A DNA stretch of 64,000 nucleotides from a virus (taxonomy: Duplodnaviria; Caudoviricetes), in IMG/VR virus record IMGVR_UViG_3300032285_001531; one strand, 5' to 3'. The notes under the pieces are model-generated. The model was not told the origin of the DNA. It worked only from the letters and a program-made list of their open reading frames with translations, and did no database searches. Below are positions 3,770-64,000 of this stretch, piece after piece; the first letter of the stretch is position 1; each line of letters starts with the position of its first letter. Both the position numbers and the translations under genes were made by a program.

Positions 3770-3846
3770 AATTGAATTACCCAGAAAGGTTTAAGCTACC
3801 TCAAAAAGCTGTATAATGTAACACTCACACACATAGGAGATTTAAA

Positions 3847-4122
3847 ATGAGTACAGAACTACCAAAACTACCAGAAGTAAAATTTAACAAGAACGGTTAC
3901 GAACTACGCACTGATATATTATCAATGGCTAAAGACATTGCAATGCAAGACTTTACTATGAAATTTCAAGGTTGGGAACTGACTGCAAAACGTGATGAAA
4001 AAACAGGTCAGATCGTTACACAAGTTGGTATGCCAGAGTTTCCAGGATTAGAAAAAATCCTAGAAAATGCAGAAAAGATGTATGGCTTTGTTAATCAAAG
4101 CACTAGTAAAGATAAGAAGTAA
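3847..4122 (+). CDS. hypothetical phage protein
   Basis: AGGAG RBS; KNGYELRTDILSMAKD motif. Confidence 0.75.
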   Translation: MSTELPKLPEVKFNKNGYELRTDILSMAKDIAMQDFTMKFQGWELTAKRDEKTGQIVTQVGMPEFPGLEKILENAEKMYGFVNQSTSKDKK

Positions 4123-4138
4123 TCTATAATACTTCACA

Positions 4139-4169
4139 CAAAGCCCGTTAATTCGGGCTTTACCTTTTT
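4139..4169 (+). terminator. intrinsic terminator
   Basis: AAGCCCG-TTAATT-CGGGCTT stem followed by T-rich tract. Confidence 0.7.
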
Positions 4170-4206
4170 GTTTACAAAGTTATTAATTTTAGTATATAAT
4201 ATCAGT

Positions 4207-4959
4207 ATGAAAGACCTTACACTTTATTGCAACTGCTATCCAGAACACGAGAACCAGCACACACAATATATGCAAAAGAACTTAATGTGTGGTTCTAGTA
4301 ATATATCTGAAGAATATCGTAGAGAACTATTAAAAAAGAATTTTTACTTTGATGATAACGGATACAATATTTCAGAACTTAACAACTACTTAGGTGATTT
4401 AACCGGATTATATTATATTTGGAAGAATACCTCTGAGGGTATTATTGGTACTAATCAGTATCGTAGACATTGGCTTGAAGAAGAAGTTGATAATCTAAAG
4501 TTTGATGAAAGAACCTTTTATATTTCTGCCCCTTTTAAATTCAACAATAGTGTATATGACCAATTCATTGAAAGTCATGGATCAATGATGATGAATGTTT
4601 TATATGAAGCTGCTAAGCATAAAAAAATTCATCTTACTACAGAAGATGTAGAGCAGTTAAAGAATATCAATGTACTATCCTCTTGTAATATGTTTTTCTC
4701 TCATAGAGATATTTTTAATAAACTTTGCGAGATTCATTTTGAAACTATGTTTGAGATTTATAATGGTGTTAAATATGCACTGCCATTTATACAAGATGAT
4801 AATCCATGGCATGTAAATCAACCTAGAACATTGGCATTTCTTTCAGAGAGAATATTAACATTAACATATTTGAACATAAACAAATATATACCTAATACTA
4901 AAATAAAATCAGTGTCATGGGTTAATAACGGAACTCTTATACATAAACATGATCATTAA
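4207..4959 (+). CDS. DUF4422-family glycan-biosynthesis-associated protein
   Basis: NISELN..LGDLTGLYYIWKN...IIGTNQYRR and FLSERIL motifs. Confidence 0.65.
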   Translation: MKDLTLYCNCYPEHENQHTQYMQKNLMCGSSNISEEYRRELLKKNFYFDDNGYNISELNNYLGDLTGLYYIWKNTSEGIIGTNQYRRHWLEEEVDNLKFDERTFYISAPFKFNNSVYDQFIESHGSMMMNVLYEAAKHKKIHLTTEDVEQLKNINVLSSCNMFFSHRDIFNKLCEIHFETMFEIYNGVKYALPFIQDDNPWHVNQPRTLAFLSERILTLTYLNINKYIPNTKIKSVSWVNNGTLIHKHDH

Positions 4960-4961
4960 TA

Positions 4962-6230
4962 ATGAACTTAACTGAAATCAGCAAACAATTCAATCCCGCA
5001 TACATTAAGAACTATGATAACTTTGATTCGTCAAAAGATAGTGTCTTATATGCAGGACCTTATTGGAATCATTTAGAACTTGAAGCGATACTTGATAGTG
5101 TACTCAACGGCAACTGGATAGTAAGTGGTCCTAAAGTAGAACAGTTTCAGGATGAATTCGCTAAGAAGTTTAACGTTGGTTATAGCCACATGGTCAATAG
5201 TGGTAGTAGTGCTAATCTAGTTATGATAGCAGCATTGAAGAAACGTTTTCGTTGGAATGACAACGATGAAATTATTGTTAGCCCGGTTGGCTTCCCTACA
5301 ACTATTGCACCTATTGTACAAAACAAACTAACACCCAAGTTTATTGACATTGAGTTTGATACATTGAACTTTGATGTTAATTTAATAGAAGAGGCAATAA
5401 ACAAAAAAACACGAGCAATCATTGTAAGTCCTGTACTAGCTAATCCACCTGACATGGACAGAATCAAACAGATATGCGTTGACAATGATTTGTTATTGAT
5501 TGGTGATAACTGTGATAGTCTTGGTACATTATACAATGATAAGCCATTAAGTGATTACTATTATAGTTGGAGTTGTAGTTTCTATCCCGCACATCATATC
5601 AGCACTGGTGAAGGTGGAATGGTGTCAAGTAACGATAAGTTTCTTATTGACTTAGTGCGTAGTATTAGTTGGTGGGGTAGAGATTGTTATTGTACAGGTG
5701 TTAACAACACATTGAGTTGTGGTACATGTGGTAAGCGTTTTGATTACTGGCTAGAGAACTATGATGGTATTATTGACCACAAGTATATCTATAGTAACAT
5801 GGGATACAATCTTAAGCCACTTGACTTACAAGGTGCAGTTGGTTCAGTACAACTAACTAAGGTAGATGATATATGCACTAAACGCAAACATAATAAAGAA
5901 CAGATAGAACAAATGCTCGTGCGTCATTTAGGTATTGTACCTGTTAAAGTATATAAGAACGCTGACCCTAGTTGGTTCGGTGTACCTATTGTATGTCGTA
6001 AACAGGGTGAGAAAGAGTTATTAGTAGCTCATTTTGAAGCAAACAGAATACAAACACGTAATTATTTTGGTGGCAATATCTTATTGCACCCGGCGTATAA
6101 ACACTTAGGTGACTACAAGAAATTCCCTAATGCAAACAAAGTATTAGACTATGTTTTTTTCTTGGGTTGCAGTCCGTTGTATAACGACAGTGTATTAGAT
6201 TATTTTAATGAAGTGATTAAGAAATGGTAA
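4962..6230 (+). CDS. rfbH: CDP-4-keto-6-deoxy-D-glucose 3-dehydrase (DegT/DnrJ family, RfbH/DdhC)
   Basis: NSGSSANL, DNCDSLG, SFYPAHHISTGEGG (His in place of the catalytic Lys), WGRDCYC, GYNLKP. Confidence 0.9.
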   Translation: MNLTEISKQFNPAYIKNYDNFDSSKDSVLYAGPYWNHLELEAILDSVLNGNWIVSGPKVEQFQDEFAKKFNVGYSHMVNSGSSANLVMIAALKKRFRWNDNDEIIVSPVGFPTTIAPIVQNKLTPKFIDIEFDTLNFDVNLIEEAINKKTRAIIVSPVLANPPDMDRIKQICVDNDLLLIGDNCDSLGTLYNDKPLSDYYYSWSCSFYPAHHISTGEGGMVSSNDKFLIDLVRSISWWGRDCYCTGVNNTLSCGTCGKRFDYWLENYDGIIDHKYIYSNMGYNLKPLDLQGAVGSVQLTKVDDICTKRKHNKEQIEQMLVRHLGIVPVKVYKNADPSWFGVPIVCRKQGEKELLVAHFEANRIQTRNYFGGNILLHPAYKHLGDYKKFPNANKVLDYVFFLGCSPLYNDSVLDYFNEVIKKW

Positions 6231-26452: not shown

Positions 26453-26767
26453 TTAAGTTTTAGGTCCTGCAGATTGTTCTATAACTTCAACACCAGTACC
26501 TACTCCAAGGATACATGAAGTATCACCGTAAGTATCTATTACTGTAAATGTTTTGGTTTCAGGATTTCCCCAAAAGGATATCATATGTTGACTTGATCCT
26601 AATCCTTTTCCCACTACTATTGGTACCTCAACATATTCTTTTTTTAATGTCTGCACTATAACTGCAGTATCATCACATATTACTTCAAACGGTACAGAAT
26701 GTTGCTCTGCATTACTTAGAGTTGGTGCGATACACAGTATCCCAATCAGAAGGTAAATTTTGTTCAC
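26453..26767 (-). CDS. secreted hypothetical protein
   Basis: GTG start with GGAGA RBS; signal peptide; Cys pair. Confidence 0.65.
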   Translation of the reverse strand: MNKIYLLIGILCIAPTLSNAEQHSVPFEVICDDTAVIVQTLKKEYVEVPIVVGKGLGSSQHMISFWGNPETKTFTVIDTYGDTSCILGVGTGVEVIEQSAGPKT

Positions 26768-28766
26768 GTAGTTCTCCTATTCTTTCTATCATCATATGAT
26801 AGTATTTGTCCATCTCTGAATCAAATTCCCCATGAAGTTGGTTCAGTAGTTCTAATGCTTCATCCCACTTTTGCTTGCGGTAGTGATCCAGCATCAGGTC
26901 ATGTTCTACACGTGATACTAAATATTCTGCCATTGAGTTTGCATCTGTTTTTAATACTGTAAAGATTCTAACACCTTCAGTCTTACCTTTTACTGCTATA
27001 ATATCTAATTCTAATGTGAAGTAATCATCACTTATCTGTTCTGCTGTCTTAGGTCCTAATACAATCTTGACACCATAAGGCTTAGACTGTCCTTCCAAAC
27101 GTGAAGCAAGATTGACACCATCACCAAGGCAAGTATAGTCAAAACGTTGACTAGACCCCATATTTCCCACAACAACAGTATCGGTATTGATTCCCAGACC
27201 CATACCAAAAGCTGGCACACCTTCTTTCGTAATTTCTTCATTGAACTCAGTTAAACTTTCCATCATCTCTAATGCCGTTTTAACAGCATCTTTTGCATGA
27301 TTGCTATTACCTACTGGAGCATTCCAGAAAGCCATTTGTGCATCGCCAATATACTTGTCTAATGTACCTTTGTTTTCTAGTATCTTTTTTGTCATAGCAG
27401 TCATGTACCTATTCATGATCTTTGTAAGACCCTGAACGTCTTTGCCATAATGTTCACTGATTGTTGTAAAGCCACGAACATCAGTAAACATAATAGACAA
27501 TTCTTGGCTTTCTCCACCTAACTTAAGTAGATCGGGTTGTCGTTGCAATTGTGCAACTAAGTCTGGTGATAAGTATGTACCAAACTGTTTCTTAATTTGT
27601 TGTTTTTGTAAAAATTCACTTATGAACTTAATGCCATAGCAATGTAGCATAACCAACACACTACTAACAATAAGCGCAGTGGCATCGACAAGCCATTTGT
27701 ACTTGGTAAAAGTATAAAAACTACCGGGCACAACGCTGCCAATAATAATGACAGATATAATAATTCCAGCATATGTCCACCTTGATATAAAAATAATTAT
27801 TAGACCTACTAGTATCAAGCCTAATATCTCAGCACCGTCTATCCAATCAGGACGTTCGATGTTAACTCCATTAATCATTGTGCCAATTACTGCTGCTTGT
27901 ACATCTTGTGGATATACTGCACCACGTGCTGTTGGTACTGGATTAGCTATACCTGCTGCACTTGTTCCTACGATTACTATTGCACCACCAAAGTCTGCGG
28001 GTAAGTCAACTGCACTTACACTCTTATTACTTTGACTCCAATCAATCCATATACGACCTAATGGATCAGTGCTGATTGGTCCGAACTGAGGTATACGCAT
28101 TTTCTCTACACCTAGTTCATTTAATTTAATTTGAAAACTTGGATCACCTGCAGCAACACGTAATGTTTCTAATGCTATTGAAGGATATAGTAAATCATTT
28201 ACACTTACTACTAAAGGTAATCTACGATTAACACCATCAATCTCAGGCATTACATTTGCAATACCAACACCTGCAGCATTTTCTTCTAATGGGCTTACGT
28301 TAGCAATTAATCCAGGATACACTACAATTCTATCAACAAATTCAGGACGCATAATACTTACACCAACTTGTTTAGGTGTATTCTTACTACGTGCTGAAGG
28401 TGTGTTACTTAATACTACAGGATGAGTTGCTAATGATTCTGCTAGTGCTTCATCTTGTCCGTTACGATCGGCTTCAGGCATTAATATATTCCACACTACA
28501 AGCCCCGCATGACGTTTATATAATTCATCAATTAGATTAGCATATTCATTTCTGGGTAAAGGCCATTGTCCATACTTATCTAGTGTAGCCTCATCTATGT
28601 TTACGGTGTAGATGTTGTTTTGTGTTATAGGTTGACTGATTATTACAGTATCAAAATATCGTAGACGAATTGATTCCACAAATGCAGGATCTGCAATGCG
28701 CAATAATGCTAACAATGCTAGTGTTATTAGTGAAGTCCAAGGGCTTAATAATATTTTCTTAATCAT
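26712..28766 (-). CDS. CHASE2-domain class III adenylate/guanylate cyclase
   Basis: IDEATLDKYGQWPLPR, D.DG..RRLPL, 3 TM, FTDVRGFT, DKYIGDA, GNMGS..RFDYTCLGDGVNLASRLEG. Confidence 0.93.
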   Translation of the reverse strand: MIKKILLSPWTSLITLALLALLRIADPAFVESIRLRYFDTVIISQPITQNNIYTVNIDEATLDKYGQWPLPRNEYANLIDELYKRHAGLVVWNILMPEADRNGQDEALAESLATHPVVLSNTPSARSKNTPKQVGVSIMRPEFVDRIVVYPGLIANVSPLEENAAGVGIANVMPEIDGVNRRLPLVVSVNDLLYPSIALETLRVAAGDPSFQIKLNELGVEKMRIPQFGPISTDPLGRIWIDWSQSNKSVSAVDLPADFGGAIVIVGTSAAGIANPVPTARGAVYPQDVQAAVIGTMINGVNIERPDWIDGAEILGLILVGLIIIFISRWTYAGIIISVIIIGSVVPGSFYTFTKYKWLVDATALIVSSVLVMLHCYGIKFISEFLQKQQIKKQFGTYLSPDLVAQLQRQPDLLKLGGESQELSIMFTDVRGFTTISEHYGKDVQGLTKIMNRYMTAMTKKILENKGTLDKYIGDAQMAFWNAPVGNSNHAKDAVKTALEMMESLTEFNEEITKEGVPAFGMGLGINTDTVVVGNMGSSQRFDYTCLGDGVNLASRLEGQSKPYGVKIVLGPKTAEQISDDYFTLELDIIAVKGKTEGVRIFTVLKTDANSMAEYLVSRVEHDLMLDHYRKQKWDEALELLNQLHGEFDSEMDKYYHMMIERIGELREQNLPSDWDTVYRTNSK

Positions 28767-55415: not shown

Positions 55416-55616
55416 TTATCTTATTTTGTTTAGGTATTCTCTACCTATGTGACCTTCTTCGATTTCTCTTAATGCTGTTACTGTAGTTTTATCTTTAGTA
55501 ACAATTTTAGGTGCATGACCACTTTTCAATTCACGTGCCCTCACACTTGCAATTAAAATTAAATCATAAAGACCGCCTGCCGCCTTAGCAGCTAATTCAC
55601 TTGTTCTGCCTTTCAT
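55416..55616 (-). CDS. rpoZ: RNA polymerase omega subunit
   Basis: GLYDLILIASVRAREL...K..VTALREIEEG. Confidence 0.8.
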   Translation of the reverse strand: MKGRTSELAAKAAGGLYDLILIASVRARELKSGHAPKIVTKDKTTVTALREIEEGHIGREYLNKIR

Positions 55617-56238: not shown

Positions 56239-56248
<10 letters not shown>

Positions 56249-56478
56249 CAATCATCTTCTTCATCTACACCATTGATAAAATCTTGTAACTTCTGCTTTG
56301 CTTCTTTTCTGCTTAATGCAGGTAGTGTAACAGTAGCAATACAATTTTTAATCTTTATATCAAACGGTACAACACCATGCGGCAGCCAGCCTTCTTCAAC
56401 CGGTACACTTACTGTGTACGATTTAAGTTTCATTATCCTATCAAGTATCTGTTTAGTAATATCCGCTGGATGTGGCAT
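56239..56478 (-). CDS. hypothetical phage protein
   Basis: 79 aa; last 10 nt overlap tRNA-Ile2. Confidence 0.6.
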
Positions 56479-56488
56479 AGTTGTTGAA

Positions 56489-58695: not shown

Positions 58696-60588
58696 TTAAT
58701 TTGCTTCTTTTACTTCGGCATCAACAACTGTTTCATCAGTTGGAGGACCATCTGGCATTTCTTTGTTGCGCTTCTCAGCTTCCCAAGCAATAGTTTTCTG
58801 CATCAACTCACCAATTTCTTTAACTGCTGCGTCCATGTCATCTTTACTATCGCCCTTTGCCGTCTCTTTATATTTACTTAGAGATTCAGTGATGGCTGTT
58901 TTTTCCTCAGCAGGAACATAATCACCTAAATTCTCAATTTGAGATTCAAGATGACCAATGCTACTATCTAAACTATTACGTGCACCAACAAGTTCAACAA
59001 TTTTCTTATCTTCTTCAGCATTCAATTCAGCATCTTTGACCATTTGATCAATCTCTTGCTCTGATAAGCCACTGTTTGCTTTGATTGTGATTTCTTTTTC
59101 TTTGTTGGTTTTCTTATCAACTGCTTTAACTGATAAGATACCATTCGCATCAATGTCAAATGTAACTTCAATTTGTGGTACTCCGCGTGGTGCTGGATCG
59201 ATACCTTCTAAATTGAATTCACCTAAACGTTTGTTACCACTTACAATCTCACGTTCACCTTGATAAACACTGATAGTAACTGATGGCTGATTGTTTTCTG
59301 CAGTAGAATAAACTTGACTGTACTTTGTAGGTATAGTTGTGTTCTTCTTAATCATCTTAGTCATAACACCACCCATTGTTTCAATGCCTAATGATAATGG
59401 AGTTACATCTAATAACAATACGTCTTTACGATCACCACCTAATACTGCACCTTGAATTGCTGCACCAACTGCAACGGCTTCATCAGGATTAACATCTTTA
59501 CGTGGAGCCTTACCGAATAGCTTCTCAACTTCTTCTTGCACCTTAGGCATACGTGTCATACCACCAACAAGAATAATCTCATCAATGTCACTTGCAGTAA
59601 CGCCTGCATCTTTCATTGCAACTTTACATGGCTCAATACTACGCTGAATTAAATCTTCTACTAATGATTCTAACTTAGCACGTGTGATCTTAACATTCAA
59701 ATGCTTAGGACCAGTTGCATCTGCAGTGATGTATGGTAAGTTAACATCAGTTTGTGTACTGTTAGATAGTTCAATCTTTGTACGTTCTGCTGCCTCTTTC
59801 AAACGTTGTAGTGCCATCATGTCTTTACTTAAATCAACACCTGAATCTTTTTTGAACTCAGCAATGATGTGATCCATTATTCTTTGGTCAAAATCTTCAC
59901 CGCCCAAGAATGTGTCACCGTTTGTGGAAAGTACTTCGAATTGTTTATCGCCATCCACATTATTGATGTCAATGATAGATATATCAAAAGTACCGCCACC
60001 AAGATCATAGACAGCAACTTTGCGGTCTGTTTTTTCATTCTTATCTACTCCATATGCCAATGCTGCTGCAGTTGGCTCATTAATAATACGCAATACTTCT
60101 AAGCCTGCAATTCTACCTGCATCCTTAGTTGCTTGACGTTGACTGTCATTAAAGTACGCTGGTACTGTAATAACTGCTTGTGTAACTTCTTCACCTAAGA
60201 AATCTTCTGCTGTCTTTTTCATCTTACGTAAAACTTCAGCACTTATTTGAGGTGGTGCATACTTCTTATCTTCTACTTGTACCCATGCATCACCGTTATC
60301 TGCTGCAACGATTTTATATGGAATCAAGTCAATATCTTTCTGTACTGCTTTCTCATCAAACTTACGTCCGATTAGTCGCTTAGCAGCATAGATTGTATTT
60401 TTTGGATTAGTTACAGCTTGACGTTTTGCTGGTGCACCAACAGTGATTTCACCGTTTTGCATATACGCAATAATACTAGGTGTAGTTCTTGCACCTTCGC
60501 TGTTCTCTAATACTTTTGGGGTTTTGCCATCTATGATAGCAACGCATGAATTGGTAGTACCTAGGTCGATACCTATAATCTTAGACAT
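58696..60588 (-). CDS. dnaK: molecular chaperone DnaK (Hsp70)
   Basis: [52 protein letters not shown]. Confidence 0.98.
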
Positions 60589-60660
60589 ATTTTTCTCCTT
60601 TAAATTAAGCAAGATTTTTTATCAGAAGCCCGTAAGGCGCATCTGAGACATGTATTTATA
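60589..60660 (-). promoter_or_regulatory. late promoter plus ROSE-like RNA thermometer leader of dnaK
   Basis: TATAAATA 60653-60660, hairpin 60622-60646, CTTGCTT 60607-60613 able to pair with AAGGAG 60595-60600. Confidence 0.65.
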
Positions 60661-61373: not shown

Positions 61374-61441
61374 AATCTTTATATATGTGTTTTAAGTTTG
61401 CCCGTTATTTTTCGGAGTATCTGACTGATAAATACTATATT

Positions 61442-62434
61442 ATGCTAATCAACGAGATTCTAACAGAAGCCATCAGTCTAACACAATACGAAAGTAAGGT
61501 GCAAGGTATGATTATTAAAGGGCTCCAAAAGGCTCTAAAACGTTTATCCAAAACTAAAGGTAAATTTCCCGAAGAAGAACAGGAATTAACACAGAATGAT
61601 CGTAGCTATCCATTTAGAACACAAATGGTGAATCTTTTTACAAGATATCTAGCCACCGATATTGCTAAAGAATTCAAAAACTTAAAAACTATTGACGGTG
61701 TTCAAGTGGACACTATCAAGTTTATCAAATCTGAGTATGGCGGATACGCACAAGGAACTGATCTTTACATCGGTTCTATAATTATAAAAAATATTGCCAG
61801 AACAACAATTGATACTATCGATCAATTTTGCATTGATGCGTCAGGTGAATATCCTGATCGTGTTACTACATTTTTCACAATGTGTTCTATAATTGCTGAT
61901 GGGGTAGACAGGCATAGTAAATTCTTACTGAATGAAATACTTGACCAAATTCAACCAAGTGTAGATTCTATAATTAACACTGTTACACATGAAATGGTTC
62001 ACACAACTCAACATGGTCGCCAGTTTCAAAAAGGAAGAAGTAACCTTGAATATCGCAGTTATTTGGATAAAAAGAAAGGCGAGTTTATAAAGTTACACAA
62101 CAACAAAGACTGGAATAAAAATCCTCGTGCAAGAGAATTGTATTACGCTAGTCCACAAGAGATTCCTGCATTTGCACATGAAATCGCTCTGTATATTATT
62201 CGTGCGTATGCTCTACCAGAAATAACTTCAGTTGAAGAAATTTCAACAGTAACTCCTGAAGATATTACTTACGCAATGTCTAGATATCCAATGATAGCAA
62301 GTCTTGCTACTAATCCTGATCCTAGAGCAAAGAAAGTTTATCAACGCTATGCTAAATTAATATACTCGGAAGTTCAGAATTACATTCAACAATTAAAACA
62401 GAAACTAACTAAAGAAGCGGTACCTGCTACTTAA
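61442..62434 (+). CDS. zincin-like metalloprotease domain protein, possible virion protein
   Basis: VTHEMVH (HExxH), Y..SPQEI.AFAHE; N-terminus MLINEILTE. Confidence 0.7.
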   Translation: MLINEILTEAISLTQYESKVQGMIIKGLQKALKRLSKTKGKFPEEEQELTQNDRSYPFRTQMVNLFTRYLATDIAKEFKNLKTIDGVQVDTIKFIKSEYGGYAQGTDLYIGSIIIKNIARTTIDTIDQFCIDASGEYPDRVTTFFTMCSIIADGVDRHSKFLLNEILDQIQPSVDSIINTVTHEMVHTTQHGRQFQKGRSNLEYRSYLDKKKGEFIKLHNNKDWNKNPRARELYYASPQEIPAFAHEIALYIIRAYALPEITSVEEISTVTPEDITYAMSRYPMIASLATNPDPRAKKVYQRYAKLIYSEVQNYIQQLKQKLTKEAVPAT

Positions 62435-62908
62435 GTTAGATTTATCATTTACCATACGGTCAAATTGACCACTCTTACCATCAAAGTAAAATCCACTAGG
62501 GTCTAGTATCTGACCTCGTAACTCAACCCAACTATGCGGTATCCATTTGAATTCTTCACGTATTGCAGGATCACTGTTTATGTATTTGATGCGGTCTGAT
62601 TTCTTGCGTGGATCAAGACCTAATTGTTTCATTGCTAATTTATCTTTTGTTTCTAGTGCGTCAATATGTAGATCAGGTTCGTCTGCATGAAACCATCCAT
62701 ATTTTTTCTTGCCGTTGTTTACAATACCAATAGGAACAATCTCGGCATTACCTATACCTTTATTCTCTAAGAATGATATAAAATCTTGACTGGCGCCATA
62801 ACAATTATCTTGTACAAAGTAATAGTTCAATTGCATTGGACTAGCTTGCTTCCAAAACTCAATTAATAATGGATCAATTTTTGATCCTGCAAGTTCAAAG
62901 ATTTTCAT
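62405..62908 (-). CDS. transglutaminase/papain-like fold protein (putative Cys-His-Asp)
   Basis: DNCYGAS ... HSWVELRGQILDP. Confidence 0.55.
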   Translation of the reverse strand: MKIFELAGSKIDPLLIEFWKQASPMQLNYYFVQDNCYGASQDFISFLENKGIGNAEIVPIGIVNNGKKKYGWFHADEPDLHIDALETKDKLAMKQLGLDPRKKSDRIKYINSDPAIREEFKWIPHSWVELRGQILDPSGFYFDGKSGQFDRMVNDKSNLSSRYRFFS

Positions 62909-63393
62909 TTTATACGAGGAATGACGTTGGTATCCCAATAGCTTTTCTTACCAATGCGACTTTTATCTACGTCTGGTAAATCTTGCCATTGTTTAGAACG
63001 TTGTTTGCTTTGCTCTACATCAAAGCCTGTGTAGTCATCAGGTACCCATTGCCATTTGTGATGATAGATCCAAGGATCAACTGCCTGTTTAGTTACTTTA
63101 ACGGTACCATCTGGTGATACTCTGATACTGGTACCACTGATTGGTTCGTCTGCAGTATCAAAGTCAGGTGATTCTATGAATGAGAATGTTTTTAACTTGG
63201 GATTGTATTTGATTACAGTAAAGTCAAAATCATTTGGGATTTTTGATTGTGCAAACTTTAATTCGTCTGCAGGAATTCCGGCTTCTATCGCATATTGTTT
63301 ATGCACATAAAGTTCTCCGCCAATACGCTTTCCTATCTTTCTAGGTTGTTGCGCAGCTTCTACTATGTTAATTAATTTACGTATATCACTCAT
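62905..63393 (-). CDS. protein resembling a domain of DNA phosphorothioation-associated putative methyltransferases
   Basis: GK.IGG..YVH, F..SPDFD...EP, P.IYHHK..V.DDY, SRIG...YW; recalled similarity, not searched. Confidence 0.5.
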   Translation of the reverse strand: MSDIRKLINIVEAAQQPRKIGKRIGGELYVHKQYAIEAGIPADELKFAQSKIPNDFDFTVIKYNPKLKTFSFIESPDFDTADEPISGTSIRVSPDGTVKVTKQAVDPWIYHHKWQWVPDDYTGFDVEQSKQRSKQWQDLPDVDKSRIGKKSYWDTNVIPRIK

Positions 63394-63430
63394 AGATATA
63401 TTTATCTGGCAGGGCATAACCATTAGGTAG

Positions 63431-63450
63431 AAAAAGGTAGCAAGCTACCC
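63431..63450 (-). terminator. intrinsic terminator of pqqA
   Basis: GGTAG-CTTG-CTACC then T5 on minus strand. Confidence 0.7.
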
Positions 63451-63477
63451 TTATCTTAAAACTTATTTTACAATGTA

Positions 63478-63549
63478 TTAGCGATTTGCAATGTACATTG
63501 TGATTTCAAAACCAAAACGCAAATCAGTTGCTTGAGGTATTGTCCACAT
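63478..63549 (-). CDS. pqqA: coenzyme PQQ precursor peptide PqqA (23 aa)
   Basis: not in ORF track; [23 protein letters not shown] with ExxxY core; AAGGAG RBS 63556-63561; TAAATA 63586-63591. Confidence 0.93.
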
Positions 63550-63660
63550 GTTATTCTCCTTAAATGAATACATATACTGCATATGTATTTAAGATATAGT
63601 AACACGTAAAAACACCAAGGTATTGCAGATAATCATTGGCTGATACTAATGAAAATCATT

Positions 63661-63835
63661 AAAATGCTCTGCGACCCTCGGCGGTAATTATAGTACTAAC
63701 AGCTTCGTCTAGCTTTCGCCGCATCAACTGTTAAATACCTTCCACCCGCTCCCCGACAGGGTCCGTTCTCGCATTGCCAGCGCACTTTTCGCCTAAGTGT
63801 AAGGTCCTACGAGGAATTACCTCGCTTCTCATCTT
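63661..63835 (-). ncRNA. candidate structured RNA with RNase P S-domain / T-box-like double T-loop module
   Basis: GC-rich non-coding island; nested hand-folded stems; GCGAGAA and GGUGGAA joiners flanking one helix. Confidence 0.55.
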
Positions 63836-63856
63836 CCGGACCAGAATAGAGTGTGA

Positions 63857-64000
63857 TTAACACTCACGTTCTTTACGAATTCGCCATCTTTCTAATTGAG
63901 CTAGGCGAATTTTTTCTTTTTGTTCAATAGTCATAGGAATTCCTAATTTTCCATTTGGTTTTCCTTTTTTATTTTGACTTATTTTTTGATTTACTATATC
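63857..64000 (-). CDS. C-terminal fragment of NUMOD3-type homing-endonuclease-like protein (runs off window)
   Basis: KISQNKKGKPNGKLGIPMTIEQKEKIRLAQ resembles NUMOD3 repeats. Confidence 0.6.
   Translation of the reverse strand, partial: DIVNQKISQNKKGKPNGKLGIPMTIEQKEKIRLAQLERWRIRKEREC

Follow-up and report, generated by a model that had tools for sequence, protein, structure and literature searches.

This locus raises the question of what is encoded by the GC island near the end of the window, i.e., the whole 64,000-nt stretch of phage DNA analysed here. The window belongs to a large, tailed phage with a baseplate-wedge match to Methylophilales phages, and the phage is tRNA-rich, as had been stated at the outset, the Rfam scan of the whole window returning tRNAs only (n = 11). 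The element itself has a GC content of 54-56%, against ~33% in its surroundings. The preliminary description had quoted the minus-strand sequence of 63661-63835, which we confirmed, and had read it as a novel structured non-coding RNA resembling an isolated RNase P specificity domain. The novelty was borne out, as Rfam 15 returned no family match at E<=10 either for window 63200-64000 or for the canonical members L018 and L014 of the family described below, and the models of RNase P, T-box, known ribozymes and riboswitches gave no match in the Rfam scans at this threshold. A literature search by sequence words of the RNA found nothing. As judged by Rfam 15, the family was previously uncatalogued, and the catalogue of 10,006 candidate viral RNAs (csRNA) in PMC10690425 lies outside this comparison.

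The RNA gene proved to be larger than first flagged. It occupies window 63665-63872 on the minus strand, ~208 bases, and the start given earlier, 63835, lies ~37 nt too far 3', as conservation continues through two further hairpins and an AGAACGU leader up to 63872. The 3' boundary of the element is 63665, where conservation stops. The folding energy of the lone window sequence was not better than that of shuffles (z = -0.81), and therefore the evidence that the fold is more than chance is comparative. This evidence showed that window 63665-63872 (-) encodes a real folded member of a structured RNA family with a consensus length of ~206 nt. The parts of the window copy, and the ORF at its 5' edge, are given below in 5' to 3' order, with per-helix pair counts made on 176 distinct sequences.

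63857-64000, minus strand: C-terminus of an ORF, 47 codons, cut by the window end, with its stop codon at 63857-63859.
63866-63872, minus strand: 5' leader AGAACGU, of which ACGU is nearly invariant in the 176 members.
63849-63865, minus strand: hairpin H1, GAGUGU-UAAUC-ACACUC; double-sided changes in 5 of 5 family pairs, with 99.2% canonical cells.
63834-63846, minus strand: hairpin H2, UUCU-GGUCC-GGAA; 100% canonical, 3 of 4 pairs compensatory, the loop forming a pseudoknot.
63825-63833, minus strand: joining strand GAUGAGAAG, identical in 141 of the 176 distinct members and in the window.
63810-63824, minus strand: hairpin H3, CGAGG-UAAUU-CCUCG; 3 of 4 pairs compensatory, the loop contacting that of H1.
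63800-63809, minus strand: linker UAGGACCUUA, which holds the pseudoknot strand GGACC (63803-63807).
63783-63799, minus strand: hairpin H4, CACUU-AGGCGAA-AAGUG; 4 of 6 pairs compensatory.
63770-63782, minus strand: H4b, a 3-bp hairpin with a 7-nt loop, CGC-UGGCAAU-GCG; pair 92-100 is CG in 167 and UA in 9 sequences, with no exception.
63764-63769, minus strand: joining strand AGAACG, part of the GCGAGAA named in the preliminary description; variants AUAACG, UUAACG, UAAACG and AGAGCG.
63758-63763, minus strand: 5' strand of helix P-b, GACCCU, with its partner at 63673-63678; 6 of 6 pairs show double-sided changes, 99.8% canonical.
63740-63757, minus strand: GU bulge, CG (P-b2), variable 4-nt bulge, GCGG (P-c) and GUGGAA, in this order 5' to 3', the internal-loop strand GUGGAA being 63740-63745.
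63692-63739, minus strand: H5, a terminal arm of variable length, here with a GAAA cap; the 4 pairs past the closing G-U are compensatory.
63679-63691, minus strand: internal-loop strand AUAAUUA, followed by CCGC (3' strand of P-c) and CG (3' strand of P-b2).
63673-63678, minus strand: 3' strand of P-b, AGGGUC, pairing with the GACCCU of 63758-63763.
63665-63672, minus strand: 3' tail GCAGAGCA, invariant and with no partner found, at which conservation ends.

How widely the RNA occurs was examined with sequence patterns and profiles. The 21-base gapped pattern GCGAGAACGG-N(4-24)-CGGGTGGAAGG was found in more than 120 metagenome and 97 IMG/VR stretches, nearly all matches being 35 nt long, where chance would have given no more than a handful. 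An independent pattern from the 3' end, AATTACCGCC-N(5-9)-CAGAGCA, gave at least 119 matches; many of these loci lack the first pattern yet carry a complete RNA, which added 72 new full-length matches of the family model R1. With an nhmmer profile we recovered 281 copies in viral and metagenome contigs, 239 of them full-length and 176 of these distinct. Five phage records of 197-345 kb had exactly one copy each, and the carrier contigs range up to 524 kb. Hundreds of large environmental phages carry the RNA, once per genome and usually adjoining tRNA genes. On the other side, no copy was found in the 50,697 records of INPHARED phages, and the RNA was absent from the relatives reached via the neighbouring protein P0001 (L001-L005). 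Thirty pattern matches among 185,579 prokaryote species fitted neither the family profile nor RNase P, and were set aside as chance. These results showed that the family is widespread and phage-specific.

The fold of the family was established from alignments. RNAalifold on alignment A1, made of 48 representatives with the window included, predicted 45 pairs, 27 of them with double-sided changes. In A2, an independent sequence set used for the covariation test, 98.5% of the cells were paired, against 82.6% in shuffles, and the covariation score was 0.438, against 0.166 in shuffles, none of 500 shuffles reaching 0.438; slid controls on the same set scored 0.04-0.07. The 5' domain is compact, comprising H1, H2 and H3 with kissing loops and a pseudoknot, followed by H4 and H4b, and the 3' domain is a rod formed by P-b, P-b2, P-c, an internal loop and the variable arm H5. 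The rod is closed by the long-range helix P-b, with the family form GNNNNU/RNNNNY, and P-b2 is its 2-bp extension, where pair 117-187 is CG with three U-A compensations. P-c (GCGG/CCGC) is invariant across the family and hence gives no covariation signal. The 4-nt bulge beside P-b2 varies, being GGGA in the window and GGAA in most members. At the base of H5 4 of 5 pairs are compensatory, and the arm itself is nearly missing in some members and ~90 nt longer in others. Two further pairings examined were discarded, namely a UGC/GCA helix proposed by RNAalifold, which is excluded by the covariation of H4b, and a P7-like pairing GGUGGUA/UACCGCC, which does not occur in the window copy and clashes with P-c.

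Both tertiary contacts of the 5' domain are also visible in the alignment. In the kissing of the H1 and H3 loops, pair 16-57 is GC in 130 and AU in 31 sequences, and pair 17-56 covaries too. The pseudoknot joins, in its family form, the H2 loop ACCC with the linker GGGU, is 99.7% canonical, and shows compensation in 2 members, where G-C stands in place of A-U. In the window both sides differ from the family, the H2 loop GGUCC (63838-63842) and GGACC of the linker still making 5 Watson-Crick pairs, which has a chance of 0.2-0.6%. The window copy is the most divergent member, with at most 68% identity to any other, and every one of its helices has been rewritten with compensation. It is the same as the family at AGAACGU, GAUGAGAAG, the UGGCAAU loop with AGAACG, GUGGAA, the AAUUACCGCC core and GCAGAGCA, the variable 4-nt bulge being the sole exception. 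Across the 176 members AAUUACCGCC is invariant but for one base in a single member, and UAUAAU varies at its third base only. Thus helices vary freely with compensation around purine-rich joining strands and loops that hardly change.

Two side observations concern the architecture. The hexamer AGAACG stands twice in the RNA (63866-63872 and 63764-63769, minus strand), directly preceding helix H1 and helix P-b, respectively, and both copies are conserved family-wide as ANAACG. In L018 (3235-3640) and L067 the RNA is lengthened at its 5' end by a structured segment of ~90 nt and, between the pseudoknot strand and H4, by a further two hairpins, so the family has elaborated variants of up to ~400 nt.

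The preliminary description had folded its sequence by hand and had named covariation as a check, and when its stems were placed on the alignment, three were upheld and four gave way. The hairpin CGAGG/CCUCG, which it had called P8-like, is H3, the hairpin CACUU/AAGUG is H4 and the long GAAA-capped arm is H5, all three confirmed by covariation. On the other hand, the stem GACCUU/AGGGUC is only 49.7% canonical across the 176 distinct members, and the stem UGGCAAU/AUUACCG has a fixed C-A mismatch and 41% A-C at another pair without compensation. Canonical pairing reaches 78% in the closing stem AAGAUG/CAUUUU, which shares two bases with the proven helix H2. The P12-like hairpin CCC-UGUC-GGG lacks compensatory changes; the partner of its 5' strand is AGGGUC, with double-sided changes in 6/6 pairs, and in AAUC variants the hairpin is broken and the compensation is found at this far 3' strand.

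This last result bears directly on the proposed likeness to RNase P, in which GCGAGAA and GGUGGAA were taken to flank one hairpin and to form the interdigitated T-loops that dock the tRNA elbow. Since the P12 5' strand pairs with the far 3' strand, the two joiners flank no common hairpin. They are separated by P-b, P-b2 and P-c, AGAACG lying between H4b and P-b and GUGGAA in the internal loop ~12 bp (plus bulges) further along the same rod. In the S-domain (J11/12-J12/13), in contrast, P12 stands between the strands. The defining feature of the double T-loop module is a set of six core bases, AG..A and UG..A (Lehmann et al. 2013, PMC3664808; review PMC4810234). The second joiner, UGGAA, fits UG..A, although its fifth base is G in 26 of 176 members (15%); the first, AGAAC, has C at position 5 and so departs from AG..A, and its G is replaced by U or A in ~13% of distinct members. 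The RNA does have, like the S-domain, a purine-rich strand, GGGUGGAAGG, before a hairpin as in CR-III, an AGAA-type strand upstream, and an association with tRNAs. This likeness to CR-III amounts to a purine-rich word of ~10 nt. The corresponding word is GGUUGAAAUGG in Nitrosomonadales rnpB and GGGUGAAAGG in CR-III of E. coli RNase P. As the preliminary description had noticed, catalytic signatures are missing: CR-I (GAGGAAAGUCC)/P4 and CR-V are absent from the window element and from the 206-nt consensus. No catalytic domain occurs anywhere in the family, unlike in RNase P, and the many members bounded by tRNAs on both sides could not accommodate a C-domain. Recognition failed in both directions: R1, run with filters off on 4 real rnpB loci, gave noise only, none of it on the rnpB strand and region, and no Rfam model of RNase P (RF00010/RF00011) or the T-box matched the RNA. 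The tRNA-cluster setting, the CR-III-like word and UGGAA would suit an isolated analogue of the specificity domain serving as a tRNA sensor, chaperone or RNase P decoy, but with joiners placed differently by covariation and the hairpin between them not conserved, we regard such a tRNA-elbow binder as very improbable.

We then considered the genomic neighbourhood of the family. An upstream same-strand tRNA was present at 115 loci, and at 79 of these it ends 97-100 nt (one at 103) before GCGAGAA, and hence the conserved GAACGU directly follows the CCA of the tRNA. An upstream tRNA abuts 77 of the 172 distinct copies (~45%), ~50 copies abut a downstream tRNA, and in many members the next tRNA begins few nt past GCAGAGCA. 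The abutting upstream tRNAs are of about a dozen identities, and the place of the RNA in the arrays varies. About a quarter of the copies stand 3-6 nt after an unrelated protein gene instead of a tRNA. The upstream ORFs in the relatives encode radical SAM, methyltransferase and tryptophan halogenase proteins and unknowns; as these families are unrelated, they suggest no protein partner.

Within the window, no tRNA adjoins the RNA gene; its neighbours are a partial ORF on the 5' side and pqqA ~115 nt away on the 3' side. The partial ORF (63857-64000) gave weak tblastn matches (E ~1) which were consistently to HNH/NUMOD3 homing endonucleases, and Pfam gave nothing for the fragment; a free-standing homing endonuclease is its probable identity. 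The ORF has its stop codon in the H1 loop and the AGAACGU leader as its last codons, so that mobile gene and RNA gene overlap at the 5' edge of the latter.

Several other features of the window and its relatives were noted. The pqqA-like ORF (63478-63549, minus strand) has 23 codons, a strong AAGGAG ribosome-binding site and an E-x-x-x-Y core, with no pqqB-E nearby. A full-length Hsp70/DnaK (PF00012, E = 6e-257) and a CHASE2-adenylate/guanylate cyclase are encoded at 58696-60612 (-) and 26712-28766 (-). Between tRNA-Trp and tRNA-Val a 66-aa ORF (55416-55616, minus strand) matches RNA polymerase omega/Rpb6 (PF01192, E = 1e-11), and other ~200-nt spacers of the tRNA array contain ORFs of 53-71 aa for which Pfam gave nothing. 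Among the spacers of this array, coding is least clear in that of 240 nt between tRNA-Thr and tRNA-Met (56249-56488, minus strand): a 79-aa ATG ORF with no Pfam match (56239-56478) runs into the tRNA-Met gene, and a separate scan inside the spacer gave no ORF. This spacer could be the home of another RNA. In the relative L002, a 498-aa protein (3788-5284) has a C-terminal part homologous to window ORF 62905-63393 and an N-terminal part matching window ORF 61385-62434, which in the window lies on the opposite strand, i.e., a gene split and an inversion separate the two phages. The carrier contigs L081 (5284-5748, 7621-8046) and L026 (2379-2799) also encode a GOLLD with a nested tRNA, in L081, and phage tmRNAs of permuted and beta types.

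What the RNA does was approached from its conservation and its setting. We favour, at a little below an even chance, a stable trans-acting RNA, released by tRNA enzymes where tRNAs flank it, which acts on or binds a conserved partner. The RNA would be transcribed within tRNA-cluster or neighbouring-gene transcripts, and where tRNAs flank it, host tRNA-processing enzymes would release it, RNase P cutting at the 5' end of the next tRNA and 3'-end processing of the preceding tRNA freeing the other side. The released RNA may then accumulate as a stable trans-acting species, whose invariant single-stranded surfaces would serve as its binding or active site. The partner engaged there would be highly conserved and would most plausibly belong to the translation or tRNA metabolism of the host. 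As no tRNA abuts the window copy and about a quarter of the copies follow protein genes, maturation by tRNA enzymes is not general. Two observations count against this reading: the invariant UAUAAU could be a promoter element at the DNA level, and the invariant strands equally suit a ribozyme, an aptamer or an RNA-only assembly.

In a ribozyme, or a small-molecule aptamer or sponge, GAUGAGAAG, AGAACG, GCAGAGCA and the internal loop would form the catalytic or ligand pocket, and the cores of ribozymes and riboswitches typically show helices covarying freely around near-invariant junction strands, as here; the pseudoknot and loop-loop contacts make the core of the phage RNA compact. No known ribozyme or riboswitch model matches, however, there is no conserved downstream gene to regulate, and the data suggest neither a cleavage site nor a ligand, and we consider this explanation unlikely. 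We judge no differently the idea of an RNA-only architectural particle, a GOLLD/ROOL-like oligomer or cage with H5 at its periphery. It draws on the ornate pseudoknotted fold, on the niche shared with GOLLD and ROOL in phage tRNA islands, and on a palindrome at the 5' end, ACGU (AACGUU in most members), which is, however, only 4-6 nt long and partly overlaps H1. In one carrier, L081, GOLLD (201.8 bits) lies in the same tRNA island ~650 nt from the phage RNA, and this score implies that the GOLLD model works on such material. Against the particle, the RNA is far smaller than GOLLD or ROOL, and GOLLD was absent from the five large carrier genomes. The same absence rejected the separate notion that the RNA is a 5' domain of GOLLD.

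The promoter-like UAUAAU leads to a further alternative, that the sequence acts in cis on the tRNA-cluster transcript or DNA as a processing platform, stabiliser or antiterminator, or as an embedded promoter (UAUAAUUA) for downstream genes. The direct abutment to tRNAs would fit this role, and variation at the third base alone is like that of -10 boxes. But neither the window copy nor about a quarter of its relatives is flanked by tRNAs, the position in the arrays varies with flanking tRNAs of about a dozen identities, and conservation and covariation extend over 200 nt, far beyond the need of a promoter; moreover, promoter and terminator calling gave nothing on the minus strand at the window locus. 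We hold a cis element to be quite improbable. Finally, a structured GC-rich RNA directly after a homing-endonuclease-like ORF might be the 3' part of a group I or group II intron carrying this ORF. All three frames close within 10 codons past the element, the Rfam intron models gave no match, and other genomes carry the 206-nt RNA in full and on its own, either between tRNAs or behind unrelated genes, no endonuclease being present. The family context has already refuted the intron, to which we attach next to no probability.

More broadly than the trans-acting RNA favoured above, the family may represent a new compact, pseudoknotted class of phage RNA with its own biochemical activity, arising from the tRNA clusters of giant phages and commandeering or protecting translation, a prospect to which we give perhaps one chance among several. 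That activity could be that of a ribozyme, or of a high-affinity binder or decoy whose target is a universal host component, e.g., tRNA, the ribosome, RNA polymerase or a defence signal. Phage tRNA clusters hold structured RNAs without known function, some of them for decades (T4 species 1 and 2, GOLLD and ROOL), and to these the phage RNA family is a small, tractable addition, being ~206 nt long and single-copy, with a well-defined secondary structure and two tertiary contacts. Its near-invariant strands mark a functional surface, its size suits SHAPE, crystallography, cryo-EM and partner pull-downs, and the window copy provides a natural variant in which all helices are swapped and all joiners kept. 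R1, A1 and A2 could seed a new Rfam family. A defined function would reveal what large phages do with RNA beyond tRNAs.

When compared with other known systems, the RNA resembles the T-box in having a UGGA loop between helices, similar to the UGGN bulge which pairs with the NCCA end of tRNA, and a GGC in a 7-nt loop which resembles a specifier. It differs from the T-box in having no Rfam match, no terminator or antiterminator and no regulated gene. A T-box-like pair of specifier and UGGN was also rejected, as GGC is changed to AGC in 41% with UGGA unchanged, and does not track the neighbouring tRNA. Mimicry of 5S/16S rRNA was rejected too, the matches being words found by eye without BLAST or CM support. 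Closer parallels are offered by rnaC and rnaD of T4 (species 1 and 2), which are stable RNAs of unknown function directly after tRNA-Arg in the tRNA cluster, into which a homing endonuclease, segB, is inserted, the order being tRNAs, segB, rnaD and rnaC, and the gene layout thus matching that of the phage RNA with its neighbouring endonuclease-like ORF. These RNAs are of 139 and 119 nt, and unlike the carriers described here, T4 and its relatives lack the phage RNA family. Homology to rnaC/rnaD was rejected, the best match of R1 on the T4 cluster having E = 0.53 and overlapping tRNA-Arg, i.e., no significant similarity. GOLLD (RF02032) and ROOL are ~580-800 nt or more in length, against ~206 nt, and their models do not match the phage RNA; nevertheless, like it, they are phage RNAs, highly structured and pseudoknotted, of unknown function, found near tRNA islands and mainly from metagenomes.
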